64,000 nt of DNA. Origin: an uncultured Acidobacteriota bacterium. Lineage in GTDB: Bacteria > Acidobacteriota > Terriglobia > UBA7540. Positions 6,036 through 46,884 of the stretch are shown piece after piece; the first letter of the stretch is position 1; each line of letters opens with the position of its first letter. The stretch lies in the NCBI GenBank assembly GCA_963804995.1, contig CAWDSK010000006.1, positions 2,016,001 to 2,080,000 on the forward strand, given 5' to 3'. Position numbers and translations under genes: made by a program. The notes below the pieces were generated by a model that did no database searches, was not told the origin of the DNA, and worked only from the letters and a program-made list of their open reading frames with translations.

Positions 6036-6070
6036 GTAGCGCGGACCTGTCTGCCAGGTCCGTGGTATTT
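6036..6070 (+). repeat. GTAG-type REP hairpin
   Basis: GTAG-CGCGGACCTG-TCTGC-CAGGTCCGTG; same architecture as the REP interrupted by the intron. Confidence 0.6.
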
Positions 6071-41857: not shown

Positions 41858-44296
41858 ATGCAAATCAGAACCCATTATGTGTTCCGTTCCATCCTGATCC
41901 TAGGATTCGGTGCCGCGTTGTGGGCGGCCACTCACGTGTCGCGCGTCGCGGGTGAGGCGGCGTCTCCACGCGCGCAAGCTTCATCCGGCACATCACTCGA
42001 AGTACAGGCCCACGCCGCACTTTCCGTCATCGATGGGAAAATCAAGCTCACCGGACTGCATCATCCCGTCACCGTGTTGCGCGATCGTTGGGGAGTGCCG
42101 CACATCTACGCCCAAGATCAGCACGACTTGTTTTTCGCCCAGGGCTTCGTCGCATCGCAGGACCGCCTGTTCCAGATGGAACTCTGGAAGCGCTTGGGGC
42201 AAGGGCGATTGGCGGAAATCTTCGGGCCCTCGATGCTCGAACGCGACGTGAACGCGCGGCGCCTGCGCTATCGTGGGGCGATGGCGGCTGAGTACGCGAG
42301 TTACTCTCCCGACACAAAGGAAATTCTGGAGGCCTTCACCGAAGGGATCAATGCTGAACATCCGATACCTCACGTCGCCAGGCGGCCCCGGCCTCCCCTT
42401 GGAATTCCGGCTCGCGGGCTTTTCCCCCGAGCCTTGGAAACCTGAGGACTGCATTCTGCGCATGGCGGGATTTCCCATGACCGGCAACGCGGCGCGCGAA
42501 CTTTTTCACGCTCAACTGGTGGCGCTGGTGGGAGCGGAGGGTGCCGCGAAGTTGCTGGACCTGGATCCCGCCGTCAAGCTCGATCCCGCCCCGGGCCTGG
42601 ACCTCACCGGCCTGACGGCTGATTTTCTGCGCAACCTGCCGGGAAGCGATGATCGCCTGGAATTTCCACCCGAGCCGGGAGTGCAGGGCAGCAACAACTG
42701 GACGGTGTCCGGCAAGCTGACCAGTACGGGGCGCCCGATTCTGGCGAACGATCCCCATCGCGGCATCGCCTTGCCCTCGCTGCGCTACGTCGTGCACCTG
42801 GTGGCGCCCGGTTGGGATGTTATTGGAGCCGGCGAACCGGCCTTGCCGGGCGTGGCGATTGGACACAATCAGCACGTCGCCTGGGGCATCACGATTTTTG
42901 CCGTGGACCAGCAGGACCTTTACGTTGAGACCATCGATCCCGCTGACCCGCTTCGTTACAAAACCGAAACGGGCTGGGAGCGGATGCGCGTGGAGGAGGA
43001 GGAAATCCGCATCAAGGGCAAGCCCTCCGTGCGAGCCCAGATGAAGTTCACTCGCCATGGCCCCGTGCTGTGGGAGGACCCGGCCCACCACCGCGTCCTG
43101 GCCCTGCGTTGGGTGGGAGCGGAACCGGGGACGGCGGGCTACCTGCCTTCCCTCGCCATCGATCGCGTCCAGAACTGGGAACAGTTTGAAGCGGCCATGC
43201 CGCGCTGGAAAGTGCCTCCGGAAAACATCGTCTACGCCGACACGGCGGGAAACATTGGCGAGCACTCCATGGGCCTCACGCCCCTGCGCAAGAATTGGTC
43301 AGGGCAACTGCCGGTGCCTGGAGACAAGGGATTATGAATGGTCAGGTTGGATTCCCGCCGCGAAATTGCCGCACCAGTTCAACCCCGCCGAGGGCTTCGT
43401 CGCCACCGCCAACCACAAAATGATTCCTGAGGATTACCCCTTTAAGGTGGGAAACGAATGGTCGCCTCCCTACCGCTTCCTGCGGATTCACGAAGTGTTG
43501 CGCGACGCCGCAACGCGAGGGAAAAAGCTGAGCGTAGAAGATTTGGGCCGCCTGCAAAGTGATGTCGTGTCACTGCCCGCGCGTGAGCTTCAGCCGCTGC
43601 TCGCACATGCGGTGGGCAACTCGCGTAATGCGGCGGCGCGCTTGCTGCTCGACTGGAACTGTTCACTCGATCGCGACTCTGCCGCGGCAGCGCTATTTGA
43701 ACTGTGGCTTCCGGAAGTCCAGCGCTCCGTATATCACCTTCTGGCGCAGCAAAGCGCTTGGGCACTTATGGAAGGTCATGGAGCATTGCCTGTCGTTATG
43801 CGCCACCTCGAGCACCCTGATGTGGCAACCTTCGGCCCTTCGCCTGAAGCCGCGCGCGACCGCTTGCTGCTCTCAACCCTCGCCATCGCCGTCGACAAAC
43901 TCAGCAGGCTTGAAGGCTCCGACCCCAAGCAGTGGTCCTGGGGAAAGATTCACGTCGTCCACTTCCGCCATCCTCTCGATCGCCTGCCCGGCGCAGCCGC
44001 GTTGATGGATTTGACGCCGCTGGCCAGACCAGGTGATGGTTTTACCGCCTGCGCCACCAGCTTCTCCGGAAATAGGCTTCGAGCAGACGCATGGGGCAAG
44101 CTATCGCGAGGTGATGGATGCGGCGGATTGGGACCGGTCGCAGGGGATCAATGTGCCGGGCGAAAGCGCCCAACCCGGCAGCCCTCACTATGGTGATTTG
44201 TATCCTCTCTGGATCGAGGGCAAATACTTCCCGCTCGTCTACTCTCGCCCCGCCGTGGAAAAGGAAACCACGGGGCGGTTGGTGCTGGCGCCGTGA
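41858..44296 (+). pseudogene. Penicillin acylase-family (S45) Ntn hydrolase with 3 frameshifts (pseudogene or sequencing error)
   Basis: RDRWGVPHIYA, QDRLFQM, GSNNW, LANDPH, ATANH, GASYR and PGES..PGSPHY are spread over four successive frames. Confidence 0.85.
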
Positions 44297-44444
44297 GAGG
44301 GGAAACCTTTGGGTCGGGTCATCGGTTCATCGGGCCATCGGGCCATTGAGTGATGGGTGATTTGCGATTGATGATTTGCGGATTGTGATTGGTGATTGAG
44401 GTCCGCCCGGAACACCCTTCTCCTGCCGCATGTACGGCGTAGCG

Positions 44445-46357
44445 GTTGCGGTAGGGATACCGGTTACCCGGTACCCCCCGCACGGATCCGTACGTGCGCT
44501 GGTTAGCGCATACGGCTCTTATCTCGGATGTGTGGCGGCGAACCGTTGGGATGGCCAAGGATGCACAACGTGCGGAGCAGGCAACCAGCAGGCCGCAAGC
44601 TTCCCCAGTCGGTCCCAGTTGAGGCGGTGGCGTTGACTGCGTTGACGCAGTTGTGTTCGCCACAGTCGGGTCAACCGTTCCCGAAAGATTCGCAGGCGGT
44701 CGAGGTTTCCCGGTACCGCGTGATAGTTGAAGTAGCCTTGCACGACCGACCGGAGCCATTTACCCGTATCCGCGATGGGATCGTGCCGACGCTGCCGGAG
44801 TTGTTGCTTGAGTTCCTGCAACTTCCCCCGCAGGCGCTTGCTGATCGTCTTCCGCTTCACGGTAAATTGCCCCCTCCGGTTCTTCCCGCTGATATGCGTG
44901 AAGCCCAGAAAGTCGAACGTCTCCGGCTTACCTTCTCCTCTCCGTTTCCGGTAAAGTTCGGCAAACGGCCCGAACTCGATCCGGCGCGTTTTGTCAGGAT
45001 GCAGTTCCAATCCAAACTTCCCCACCCGCTCCCGGAAATCCTCCAGAAAGCGGTCGGCTTCCGTCTGCGATTGGAATCCAAGGACCGTATCGTCGGCATA
45101 CCGCACCACGACCACGTCTCCCCGGGCGTGCTTCTTGCGCCACGCCTGCACCCACAGGTCAAAGACGTAGTGCAGATAGATATTCGCCAGCAGGGGCGAG
45201 ACCACCGCCCCTTGTGGCGTACCCATCTCCGTCTCCGACCATTCGCCTTCCTCCCTCACCCCGGCTTTCAGCCATTTCTGGATGAGCCGGAGAATCCGGG
45301 GGTCGGCGACGCGATGCTGCACGAACTTGAGCATCCATTCGTGGGATATCGAATCGAAAAATCCACGAATGTCCGCGTCAAGAACGTAGTTCACGTGCTT
45401 CACCGTGAGCGCGTACGAGAGCGCGTCCAGCGCTTGATGCTGGCTGCATCCCGGTCGAAAGCCATACGAGAAGCCCAGAAAGTCTTCCTCGTAAATCGCA
45501 TTGAGGATGGTGACCACGGCCTGTTGGACGATCTTGTCCTCCAGTGCCGCAACCCCCAACGGACGTTGCCGCCCGTCGCCTTTCGGGATATACGCCCTTC
45601 GCGAGGGCTTCGCTCGGAATGCTCCGCGGTGGACCCGGCTGTGCAGATCGACGAGTCGACCTTCCAGCCCGCTTTCATACTCCTGCCACGTCATGCCGTC
45701 TACTCCCGGTGCAGCTTTTCGCTTCAAGGCGTAAAAGCTTTCCCGCAGCAGATCGACCGTTAAGTGGTGGAGCAAGGCCGTGAACTTCATCTCCCTGTGT
45801 TCCTTCGCGGCTTTCCGCACACCCGCGAGTCCCTGGGACACGCGTGCCCCGCTCTGTGTCGGGTGCGTGTTAGGCCAACGGGTGTTCTCCTTGATCAGCG
45901 GCCTTCCCTCCTCATTCTCCGCCAACGGCTTCCCGTCTTTGTTCAAATGATTCATCGGTACTGTTCCGCTGTCCGACTCCTCGAAAGCGTGCAGGCGGGC
46001 TGTACGGCCATCGCCTTTTCCCGCCGTCCGGCCACGATCTACGGCGGCCGGCGCCTCCGAGGTCTCCCGGTTCTCGTGCAGAAAGTGTCTAGGCGTGTCT
46101 GGGGTCTACGACTACGCAGGACTGTGCCGGAACTCGCGTTGGCGTCCCGGCCTCATGTTGCCTTCCGTTTAGTCTGAAAACGTCGGCGTCCTGATTGGAC
46201 ATTTTCGAAGCTCAATACCCAGCCCACCTATTCCCCTGTTTACGCTTCACCGTGCGCCTCACGACGCCCAGCGCAAAACTCGGGGCCGAGTGGATCGCTG
46301 CTCCTTCCTCGTGAGAAATTTTCATTCTCTGCTTTCTGCCGGTTTATCCCGGCGCAC
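44445..46357 (-). mobile_element. Complete group II intron (resembles bacterial class E)
   Basis: 5' GTGCG at 46357; domain V/VI GAGCCGTATGCG...CGCACGTACGGATCCGTGCGGGGGG...CCCTACCGCAAC ending at 44445; internal RT ORF. Confidence 0.93.
44519..45955 (-). CDS. ltrA: Group II intron reverse transcriptase/maturase without an endonuclease domain
   Basis: APGVDG, YIPKGDGRQRPLG, SYGFRP, DADIRGFFD, GTPQG, RYADD, FDFLGF, domain X GYFNY. Confidence 0.96.
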   Translation of the reverse strand: MNHLNKDGKPLAENEEGRPLIKENTRWPNTHPTQSGARVSQGLAGVRKAAKEHREMKFTALLHHLTVDLLRESFYALKRKAAPGVDGMTWQEYESGLEGRLVDLHSRVHRGAFRAKPSRRAYIPKGDGRQRPLGVAALEDKIVQQAVVTILNAIYEEDFLGFSYGFRPGCSQHQALDALSYALTVKHVNYVLDADIRGFFDSISHEWMLKFVQHRVADPRILRLIQKWLKAGVREEGEWSETEMGTPQGAVVSPLLANIYLHYVFDLWVQAWRKKHARGDVVVVRYADDTVLGFQSQTEADRFLEDFRERVGKFGLELHPDKTRRIEFGPFAELYRKRRGEGKPETFDFLGFTHISGKNRRGQFTVKRKTISKRLRGKLQELKQQLRQRRHDPIADTGKWLRSVVQGYFNYHAVPGNLDRLRIFRERLTRLWRTQLRQRSQRHRLNWDRLGKLAACWLPAPHVVHPWPSQRFAATHPR

Positions 46358-46439
46358 CAGACCTCCGCCGTTGAGGTCTGCGGCTCTTCGTATGTCATCG
46401 GAGCGAATGGTGGGTGGCGAAGAACCAGCCTTTCAAACC

Positions 46440-46476
46440 AAGAACCGCGGCCCCCAAAACCGGGGGACCGCGCTAC
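46440..46476 (-). repeat. GTAG-type REP, inverted partner of the intron-interrupted REP
   Basis: Minus strand GTAGCGCGGTCCCCCGGTTTTGGGGGCCGCGGTTCTT. Confidence 0.75.
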
Positions 46477-46884
46477 GAAACATCGCCGCCGGTAGCGGGG
46501 AAGCCTTGCGGCAGGCGGTCGGCAGTAACCACTGGCGCTGGCCCAAGCCGAACGGTTGCCGCGGCGACCCCTACGATGTGCGCGAAAATTCTTGTTGTTA
46601 AACACACCTTTCTCTGTGTCCTCTGCGGCCAGAAGAGCTTTCACACAGAGGCCACGGAGATACTCTGTGCGCTCTGTGTTGAAGCTTGAGAGGCACGGAG
46701 GACACAGAGAGATTCGTTTTGATTGCGGCCTCCTGCCGCGCTGCTACCTGCTAAATTGGTTGCGAGGTGACCCCCTCACCCGCCCCGGCGACTTTGAGTT
46801 TTGCGTTTTGCGCTTTGTGTTTTGACTTTCTCTTCCGGCTCTGCCGCGCTCCGCTCCCGGCTCGACTACCCCATCGAATTCCCC

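Follow-up and report, generated by a model that had tools for sequence, protein, structure and literature searches.

Bacterial group II introns are credited with three target specificities, for homing sites, terminators and attC sites, in the accessible text of the review PMC4424553; the other papers cited below are likewise cited for the parts of their text that are accessible. Here we describe a group II intron of an uncultured Acidobacteriota bacterium that lies inside repetitive extragenic palindromic (REP) sequences. It was noticed in a 64,000-nucleotide stretch of contig CAWDSK010000006.1 (assembly GCA_963804995.1, positions 2,016,001 to 2,080,000 of the forward strand), hereafter the window, and occurs about 40 times in the genome. 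REPs are already known as landing sites of insertion sequences (IS), and REP homing by a group II intron was not found described: a full-text search, with most subscription papers and supplements beyond its reach, returned no such report, and the accessible text of 10.64898/2026.09.22.753630 mentions both terms, not together. The homing mechanism itself is most likely standard.

The IS elements that target REPs (IS1397, IS621, ISPa11, ISPpu9, ISPpu10 and ISRm22; PMC1525189) break the repeat at a fixed position in all copies, and ISPa11 inserts between REP bases 6 and 7, the position used by the studied intron. These elements are DNA transposases, whereas the element studied here is an RNA-guided retroelement. 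A table in the same paper lists a P. putida group II intron with two of nine copies associated with REPs. The hallmarks of GTAG REPs (PMC3733652) are a GTAG head followed by a palindrome, many extragenic copies, inverted doublets or clusters, and a REP-associated tyrosine transposase (RAYT) flanked by the repeats; a CTGG head is absent from the main text of that paper.

RmInt1 and RmInt2 of Sinorhizobium meliloti (class D, PMC4615759) resemble the studied intron in lacking an endonuclease (En) domain, in their bias for the lagging-strand template, in their multi-copy spread and in the use of a repeated, non-essential target, in their case the inverted repeats of ISRm17. RmInt2 also shares the pairing of three exon-binding sites (EBS1, EBS2 and EBS3), a 2-nt linker and a relaxed EBS2, and its protein reads the distal exon from −20 to −15 and from +2 to +5. 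They differ in class, in having an IS as target and in copy number (7–10), compared with a host REP hairpin and about 40 copies here. Introns of Thermosynechococcus elongatus (PMC2882425), the usual example of bacterial intron proliferation, reach 28 copies and ~1.3% of the genome, with EBS divergence, ORF-less derivatives (ORF, open reading frame) and non-essential targets; their targets have diverged, avoiding saturation, and lie in other introns or IS. In contrast, the intron studied here exceeds that copy number with one EBS set for nearly all copies and about half of its best sites filled, which represents another route of proliferation, based on one guide set and one abundant host repeat.

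Class C introns share with the studied intron a location that is always at an inverted repeat, the lack of En and a fit to single-stranded DNA at the fork. They have an intron-binding site 1 (IBS1) of 3–4 nt and no EBS2, whereas the studied intron has a 6-nt EBS1/IBS1 by covariation and probably an EBS2; they insert downstream of the stem-loop (PMC1702495), and the studied intron two pairs inside the stem at 37 of 37 sites; and in class C the shape of the target is conserved (PMC4424553, PMC7923331), here its sequence as well. An initial annotation of the window had already placed the intron outside class C, and both the 6-nt EBS1 and the protein comparison agree. Reverse transcriptase (RT) matches on pRmeGR4b were frameshifted at 57% protein identity (60% DNA identity over 1.5 kb) and intact at 34–35%; since pRmeGR4b carries a disrupted class E intron (S.me I4) and one RmInt1 copy (PMC5894124), we take the former as the class E intron and the latter as RmInt1. 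Class E introns (S.me I4, PMC5894124; Cl.be.I2 and others, PMC3753933) share the lack of En, an EBS1 and an EBS3, and a weak EBS2 would be a further common trait; fragments of class E introns, and a CL1 intron, are placed near attC sites (PMC7923331). Domain V of the studied intron closes in a 4-nt AACC loop, or in one of 6 nt with the U–A pair open, and not in the 5-nt loop given for class E/F (PMC3753933), and we therefore file the intron as class E-like rather than as a proven member of class E. Class E (IIB-type, without endonuclease) thus appears closest and class D is disfavoured, in a comparison that lacked class C and F references. Neither a REP target nor a high copy number was found for class E in the accessible parts of PMC5894124 and PMC3753933.

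Copies in REP hairpins and the sites they fill

Removal of 44445–46357 regenerates GTAGCG/CAGACCTC-CGCCGTT-GAGGTCTGCG (the slash marks the point of insertion), a GTAG-headed hairpin, as the initial annotation had read from the sequence. The 5′ exon ends in GGTCTG (46358–46363), to which the EBS1 loop CAGACU pairs at six of six positions with one G–U; this pairing, also proposed initially, is confirmed by covariation over 84 sites (see below). The genome comprises 7.55 Mb in nine contigs, and blastn at an identity of at least 99% retrieved 40 intron matches: 38 complete copies, one lacking 9 nt and one partial copy, the last two at contig starts. Together they occupy ~1% of the genome, and the 39 near-complete copies differ on average by 3.6 bases. 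In all 37 copies with both flanks, excision restores a hairpin cut at the same base, with a stem of 7–11 pairs that closes at +2 and has at least nine pairs in 35 cases; no copy among the 37 lies at an unrelated site that shares only the IBS1. The three remaining copies sit at contig ends, where their single flank matches the pattern. As there are two tandem pairs at contig ends, the copies represent about 38 independent insertions.

In the 36 copies whose 5′ flank extends over 45 nt, exon positions −5 to −3, −1, +1 to +3 and +5 are invariant, while −2 is T in 32 copies and C in four, and −10 is C in 35. Coding-like ORFs, as judged by a codon model, hold only three of 36 sites, all near the ORF end, compared with 73% of random positions, which fits the multi-copy target suspected from the start to be "safe". 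GGTCTG/C sites in the genome are filled at 32 of 300 hairpins and at one of 1171 non-hairpin sites, the latter being a degenerate hairpin. This skew and the 37 of 37 restored stems argue against a chance pattern.

The target sites carry three types of head, GTAG (23), CTGG (13) and ATGG (1). An unpaired GTAG head and a palindrome with a 5–13 bp stem, the features of GTAG REPs, are found in the 23, and the other 14 are headed CTGG or ATGG. Two GTAG variants are present in the genome with 84 and 118 exact 12-mers. The repeats are extragenic, with only six of 128 empty sites in coding-like ORFs by the codon model, and frequently occur as inverted pairs or as alternating clusters, the latter on C1 and C5. 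There are 14 Y1_Tnp matches in the genome; on C5, one such gene directly follows an intron copy and precedes a GTAG cluster, and on C6 another is bracketed by two CTGG hairpins, of which one contains the intron. Both exceed the NCBIfam RAYT cut-off (NF047646), so that one RAYT adjoins each main REP family. By their abundance, extragenic position, inverted pairs or clusters and RAYT neighbours, the target repeats are REPs as characterized in PMC3733652.

To locate the guide sequences, we gathered relatives from GTDB (79 loci), from the family (52 of 133 genomes matching), from two genus-mates and from metagenomes. Boundary mapping gave 101 rows and, after removal of six loci with false or interrupted ends and of duplicates, 87 sites, of which 84 were used for covariation; as the relatives are not independent, the covariation figures serve to locate guides and not to test significance. 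No claim depends on row L136, which is from an unpublished genome (G033). The six strongest complementarity pairs between intron and exon are formed by intron bases 182–187 with exon −1 to −6, the EBS1 (73–94% Watson–Crick versus 26–45% expected), and intron base 249 pairs with exon +1 as EBS3. A weaker signal between intron 157–158 and exon −8 to −11 suggests a short EBS2 with a variable linker. In the studied intron, UGUC at 157–160 faces exon −9 to −12, with the first three positions paired at 31 of 36 occupied sites, and a short EBS2 is likely.

The copies are strongly oriented with respect to replication. All 15 copies on C6 lie on the minus strand, the G-rich strand that also carries 16S rRNA and S10, and on C2, where the skew minimum is near dnaA, two copies left of dnaA are on the minus and three right of it on the plus strand. 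With fork direction assigned from skew and dnaA (seven of 36 copies unassignable), the sense sequence is on the lagging-strand template in 28 of 29 copies; by a local-skew measure, 30 of 35 copies have that orientation versus 87 of 220 empty sites. Local transcription was rejected as the source of this bias, being far weaker (of 36 copies, 21 share the strand of the upstream gene, 12 are opposed to it and three have no upstream gene).

The genome amounts to an unusually clean natural experiment: some 40 insertions can be compared with several hundred nearly identical targets that vary in a single base, in arm or in strand, and the homing rules of the little-studied class E group can be read from this comparison. 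REP head arms with GTCTG are filled at 24 of 53 sites in the fork orientation and at one of 72 in the other (p = 4e-10), and the CGGAC (GTCCG) variant, with one EBS1 mismatch, at three of 49 in the fork orientation (p = 5e-6 versus GTCTG). EBS1 match and strand thus matter for filling. Among hairpin arms that contain IBS1 and IBS3 but lack CGCYA, most of which are tail arms of these REPs, none of 80 is filled (p = 5e-12). Base pairing and a stem are therefore insufficient, and filling requires the bases +3 to +5, which complement the REP head, or the loop, or both together. Stem stability was rejected as a predictor, filled and empty sites being equal (p = 0.7). A similar unoccupied REP had been noted initially at 6036–6070; a REP is present at 6036–6065, but it is a CGGAC variant that mismatches both EBS1 and the candidate IBS2, and hence a poor target rather than an equivalent empty site.

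Targets of related introns

Most relatives have other EBS1 sequences, and 71 of the 87 sites are non-hairpin targets; the remaining 16 include the intron's own copy, four weak stems labelled by hand and one chance stem. A sister intron in the G018 assembly (the same assembly as G001; 90% DNA identity, EBS1 CGGACU) has all six copies at REP-type sites of the form ...CCG/CGCT, three of them with weak stems, whereas a second G018 lineage (82%, EBS1 CAGACU) has three of four copies at non-hairpin sites. In G021, a relative with 88% identity and EBS1 CAGACC has three copies, one in a CTGG REP, one that follows the 5′ half of a REP and has a foreign 3′ exon, and a third at a non-hairpin site. REP-type sites elsewhere are occupied by L012, L171 and L101, and by the ORF-less or shortened L102, L203 and L170. 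In a FastTree phylogeny of 69 proteins (FastTree only, with RmInt1 on a long branch and extra copies from the same genomes excluded), the seven REP rows need four changes, three of them forced by starred branches, so that REP use would have been either gained several times or lost several times. REP targeting is a trait of a few lineages and not of the whole clade.

A metagenome scan for introns followed by CGCYA (best 80 of 95 stretches) yielded seven credible complete introns, of which two are at clear REP hairpins, two at borderline ones and three at non-hairpin sites. The identical 3′ junction was found in four of 137 genomes of the order, including its own, a figure that is no measure of absence since short-read assemblies lose repeats. 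We rejected the rule that EBS1 tracks the commonest REP variant: with 31 CGG-type versus 14 CAG-type REPs it fits G018 (EBS1 CGGACU), but it fails in G021 (137 versus 16, CAGACC) and in the intron's own genome (118 versus 84, CAGACU).

Further observations were made on these relatives. A large Acidobacteriaceae clade (many loci within L031–L087) uses one conserved non-hairpin target motif with a consensus near AAATCGCCATTACA/CTCAT, and L013, L014, L021, L028, L116, L118 and L121 share another near GCGGGAATG...GAAAACAAA, possibly a dispersed repeat. Two relatives seem to lie inside other putative group II introns, judged by domain II–III motifs, and some form head-to-tail tandems (loci L050, L084; L062/L126; L255). 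The 5′ ends of L012, L022, L101, L102, L120, L141, L151, L170, L171 and L203 appear to have one or two extra bases (GAAAGCG, GATAGCG, GTAAGCG, GTAGCG), as judged from the position of EBS1 pairing. In CTGG hairpins, L099 and L101 (G018) target the tail arm of the strand that bears the head, an arm never used by the studied intron.

Probable homing mechanism and rival readings

Based on these observations, we propose, as the probable explanation, that the intron spreads by ordinary sequence-guided retrohoming at the lagging-strand template, as described for RmInt2, and that its homing site coincides with the head arm of the REP. At the fork, the ribonucleoprotein (RNP) would reverse-splice into the lagging-strand template while this is single-stranded, invading the complement of the GTAG strand under the guidance of 6 bp of EBS1, 1 bp of EBS3 and 3–4 bp of a short EBS2 in the REP loop; the protein would probably read the complement of the REP head at +2 to +5, and perhaps an A at −14/−15, and the nascent lagging strand would prime reverse transcription. 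This proposal draws on: (i) the single insertion base at 37 of 37 sites, (ii) the covariation of EBS1 and EBS3, (iii) the filling of GTCTG versus GTCCG arms and the strand bias, (iv) the empty tail arms and the lack of a stability effect, (v) the relatives in G018 and G021 at non-hairpin sites, and (vi) the agreement with the rules measured for RmInt2 in PMC4615759. Since IBS1 lies within the stem, the hairpin would be a passenger that has to be opened. Outside REPs, a site of this length is almost absent; as REPs are abundant and lie between genes, the intron could reach ~1% of the genome at little cost. An intron that is active, or was so very recently, is the best explanation of these copies, and splicing and retrohoming are inferred from 38 near-identical copies with exact junctions. 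The specialization on a REP family suggested initially is supported, all 37 copies being at REP-type hairpins, with the qualifications that it is confined to a few lineages, that it involves two families (GTAG and CTGG), and that sequence match and replication strand probably explain it. Every insertion parts a REP head from the hairpin behind it, and the intron could thus be a competitor of RAYT for these repeats.

Several results weigh against sequence-guided retrohoming. Non-hairpin sites that pair fully with EBS1, EBS2 and EBS3 in the fork orientation are filled at none of 55, apart from one degenerate hairpin, although 39 of the 55 lie in coding-like ORFs; none of the 55 has CGCYA, and only four such sites with CGCYA exist, one of them the filled degenerate hairpin. 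The full sequence with CGCYA is almost confined to REPs, and sequence and structure are thus confounded in this genome. EBS2 pairing has no significant effect on filling (20 of 39 versus four of 14, p = 0.21), and five of the six targets of the G018 sister mismatch its EBS1 at one base. Finally, no joint across the excised 44445–46357 was found among the matches listed (15 of 16 shown; contigs of DNA X1–X3 and RNA X16). With 26 of 28 RNA contigs matching the locus at 90–95% identity, the RNA contigs mostly come from relatives and are uninformative on splicing either way.

It is unlikely that evolution has led a non-class-C intron to read REPs in their folded form, with a protein that recognizes the hairpin together with the complement of the head tetranucleotide and opens the stem for EBS1, possibly with a primer nick by RAYT in place of the endonuclease. 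Such an intron would add a fourth target mode to the homing sites, terminators and attC sites of bacterial group II introns, and would be a parasite of the REP/RAYT system, as its entry would disable a REP by placing GTAG 1.9 kb away from the hairpin. Structure-guided homing as in class C, in which the RNP recognizes the stem, loop and head complement folded on single-stranded DNA and then opens the 3′ arm for EBS1, is also doubtful. The stem is kept at all 37 sites despite varying loops and inner stems and two REP families, the 55 fully pairing non-hairpin sites are empty, and hairpin targets recur in separate branches with EBS1 CAGACU, CGGACU, CAGACC, CGGACC and CAGAGC, all of which would be expected if the fold were read; but the stem contains IBS1, in contrast to class C with its insertion downstream of the stem-loop (PMC1702495), the 80 other hairpin arms with the same IBS1 are unused, stem stability has no effect, and close relatives insert at non-hairpin sites.

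Insertion might also occur at any EBS-matching site of the lagging-strand template, with genic insertions purged afterwards so that those in REPs are left. That 39 of the 55 fully pairing non-hairpin sites lie in coding-like ORFs agrees with such a survival filter, but the other 16 lie outside and are all empty, and intergenic tail arms are filled at none of 80 sites versus 24 of 53 head arms, which makes the filter improbable as the sole cause. Still less probable is priming with the help of a host RAYT, whose nick 5′ of GTAG on the non-invaded strand would leave a 3′-OH in the 3′ exon, directed toward the insertion site in an En-like geometry. The argument for it is geometric, with the head at +3 to +6 of the bottom strand, and RAYTs (NF047646), for which GTAG is needed in binding and cleavage (PMC3479197), adjoin copies of both REP families; the replication bias of 28 of 29 copies, in contrast, is what fork priming predicts, and most relatives with 72–85% identical proteins home at non-REP sites. 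Multiplication of one insertion by DNA-level processes (transposition of REP doublets or gene conversion) or by misassembly, which the two tandem pairs at contig ends (C6 end and C7) and the mixing of variable sites among copies, pointing to recombination or polishing noise, could suggest, is largely refuted by flanks that differ beyond the REP, by REP loops that differ between copies, by the presence of two REP families and both IBS1 variants, and by exact junctions and a strand bias that follows the origin.

The intron at the studied locus

The features of the locus are collected below. The intron has the features of group II: a 5′ GUGYG, a 3′ AY, domains V and VI, a domain I fold and an RT/maturase ORF. 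RVT_1 is the sole Pfam match of the ORF, TIGR04416 scores 342.7 (cut-off 300), and no endonuclease domain was found among the Pfam and NCBIfam family matches of the 478-aa protein, in line with what the initial annotation had stated. The unpaired A in domain VI is likely the branch point. The inverted partner REP, also noted initially, is present; its arm has two EBS1 mismatches and lies in the disfavoured orientation.

Table 1. Coordinates of the intron, its guide elements and REPs in the window
Feature	Position	Strand	Details
Group II intron, 1913 nt	44445..46357	−	5′ GUGCG (GTGCG at 46357), 3′ AAC (...CGCAAC, 44445); one of 38 complete near-identical copies
Intron-encoded RT/maturase, 478 aa, YADD motif	44519..45955	−	no endonuclease family match
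Domain I core, Rfam RF02005 group-II-D1D4-6	46102..46322	−	170.2 bits (gathering 49)
EBS1 (CAGACU), partner exon −1 to −6	46171..46176	−	covariation, 84 sites; loop inside the RF02005 match
Candidate short EBS2 (UGUC), partner exon −9 to −12 over a 2-nt linker	46198..46201	−	inferred; weak covariation
EBS3 (G), partner exon +1 C	46109	−	covariation, 94% complementary versus 69% expected
Domain V: AGC triad, AC bulge, AACC loop (not GNRA)	44485..44518	−	fold, z −4.4
Domain VI, unpaired A at 44452	44447..44483	−	fold; A eight bases from the intron end
REP head GTAG + CG; 3′ exon +1 to +6 on the invaded minus strand	44439..44444	+	sequence
Remainder of the split REP: head arm, loop, tail arm (46373–46382), tail	46358..46388	+	IBS1 46358–46363 (minus); candidate IBS2 46366–46369
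Inverted partner REP, GTAG outside (46476–46473)	46440..46476	−	sequence
Unoccupied REP, CGGAC variant	6036..6065	+	one EBS1 mismatch and a candidate IBS2 mismatch

Upstream of the intron, a penicillin amidase gene (41858–44296, plus strand) is broken across several reading frames, and would be either a pseudogene or the product of assembly indel errors. Low-complexity repeats flank the locus on both sides (44300–44400 and 46580–46800), and metagenome contigs stack on both.

Elsewhere in the genome, contig ends lie in or beside intron copies at the C2 start, C6 end, C7 start and C9 end, where the two tandem pairs are found, and in the copy at C6:1168363–1170276 a 1-nt insertion disrupts the ORF. 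Seven two-state sites among the copies (alignment columns 58, 373, 732, 858, 910, 1658 and 1705) show four gametes in 20 of 21 pairs, as if they were unlinked. Polishing with mis-mapped reads is the probable source of this noise, or else gene conversion was heavy; per-copy variants are therefore unreliable, and the use of per-copy single-nucleotide polymorphisms as a genealogy was rejected. Fragments of related introns (5′ parts and one 3′ part) occur at C1:441114, C1:206552, C2:652257, C5:460087, C6:842676 and C9:36979. The first has EBS1 CAGAGC and stands behind the arm of a CAGAGC-type hairpin, and like hairpins lie beside Y1_Tnp genes on C2 and C3. About 11 more RT matches with 32–37% identity, several of them repeated, are spread over C1, C3, C4, C5, C6 and C9 (for example C9:154739, C6:296931 and C3:1126646).

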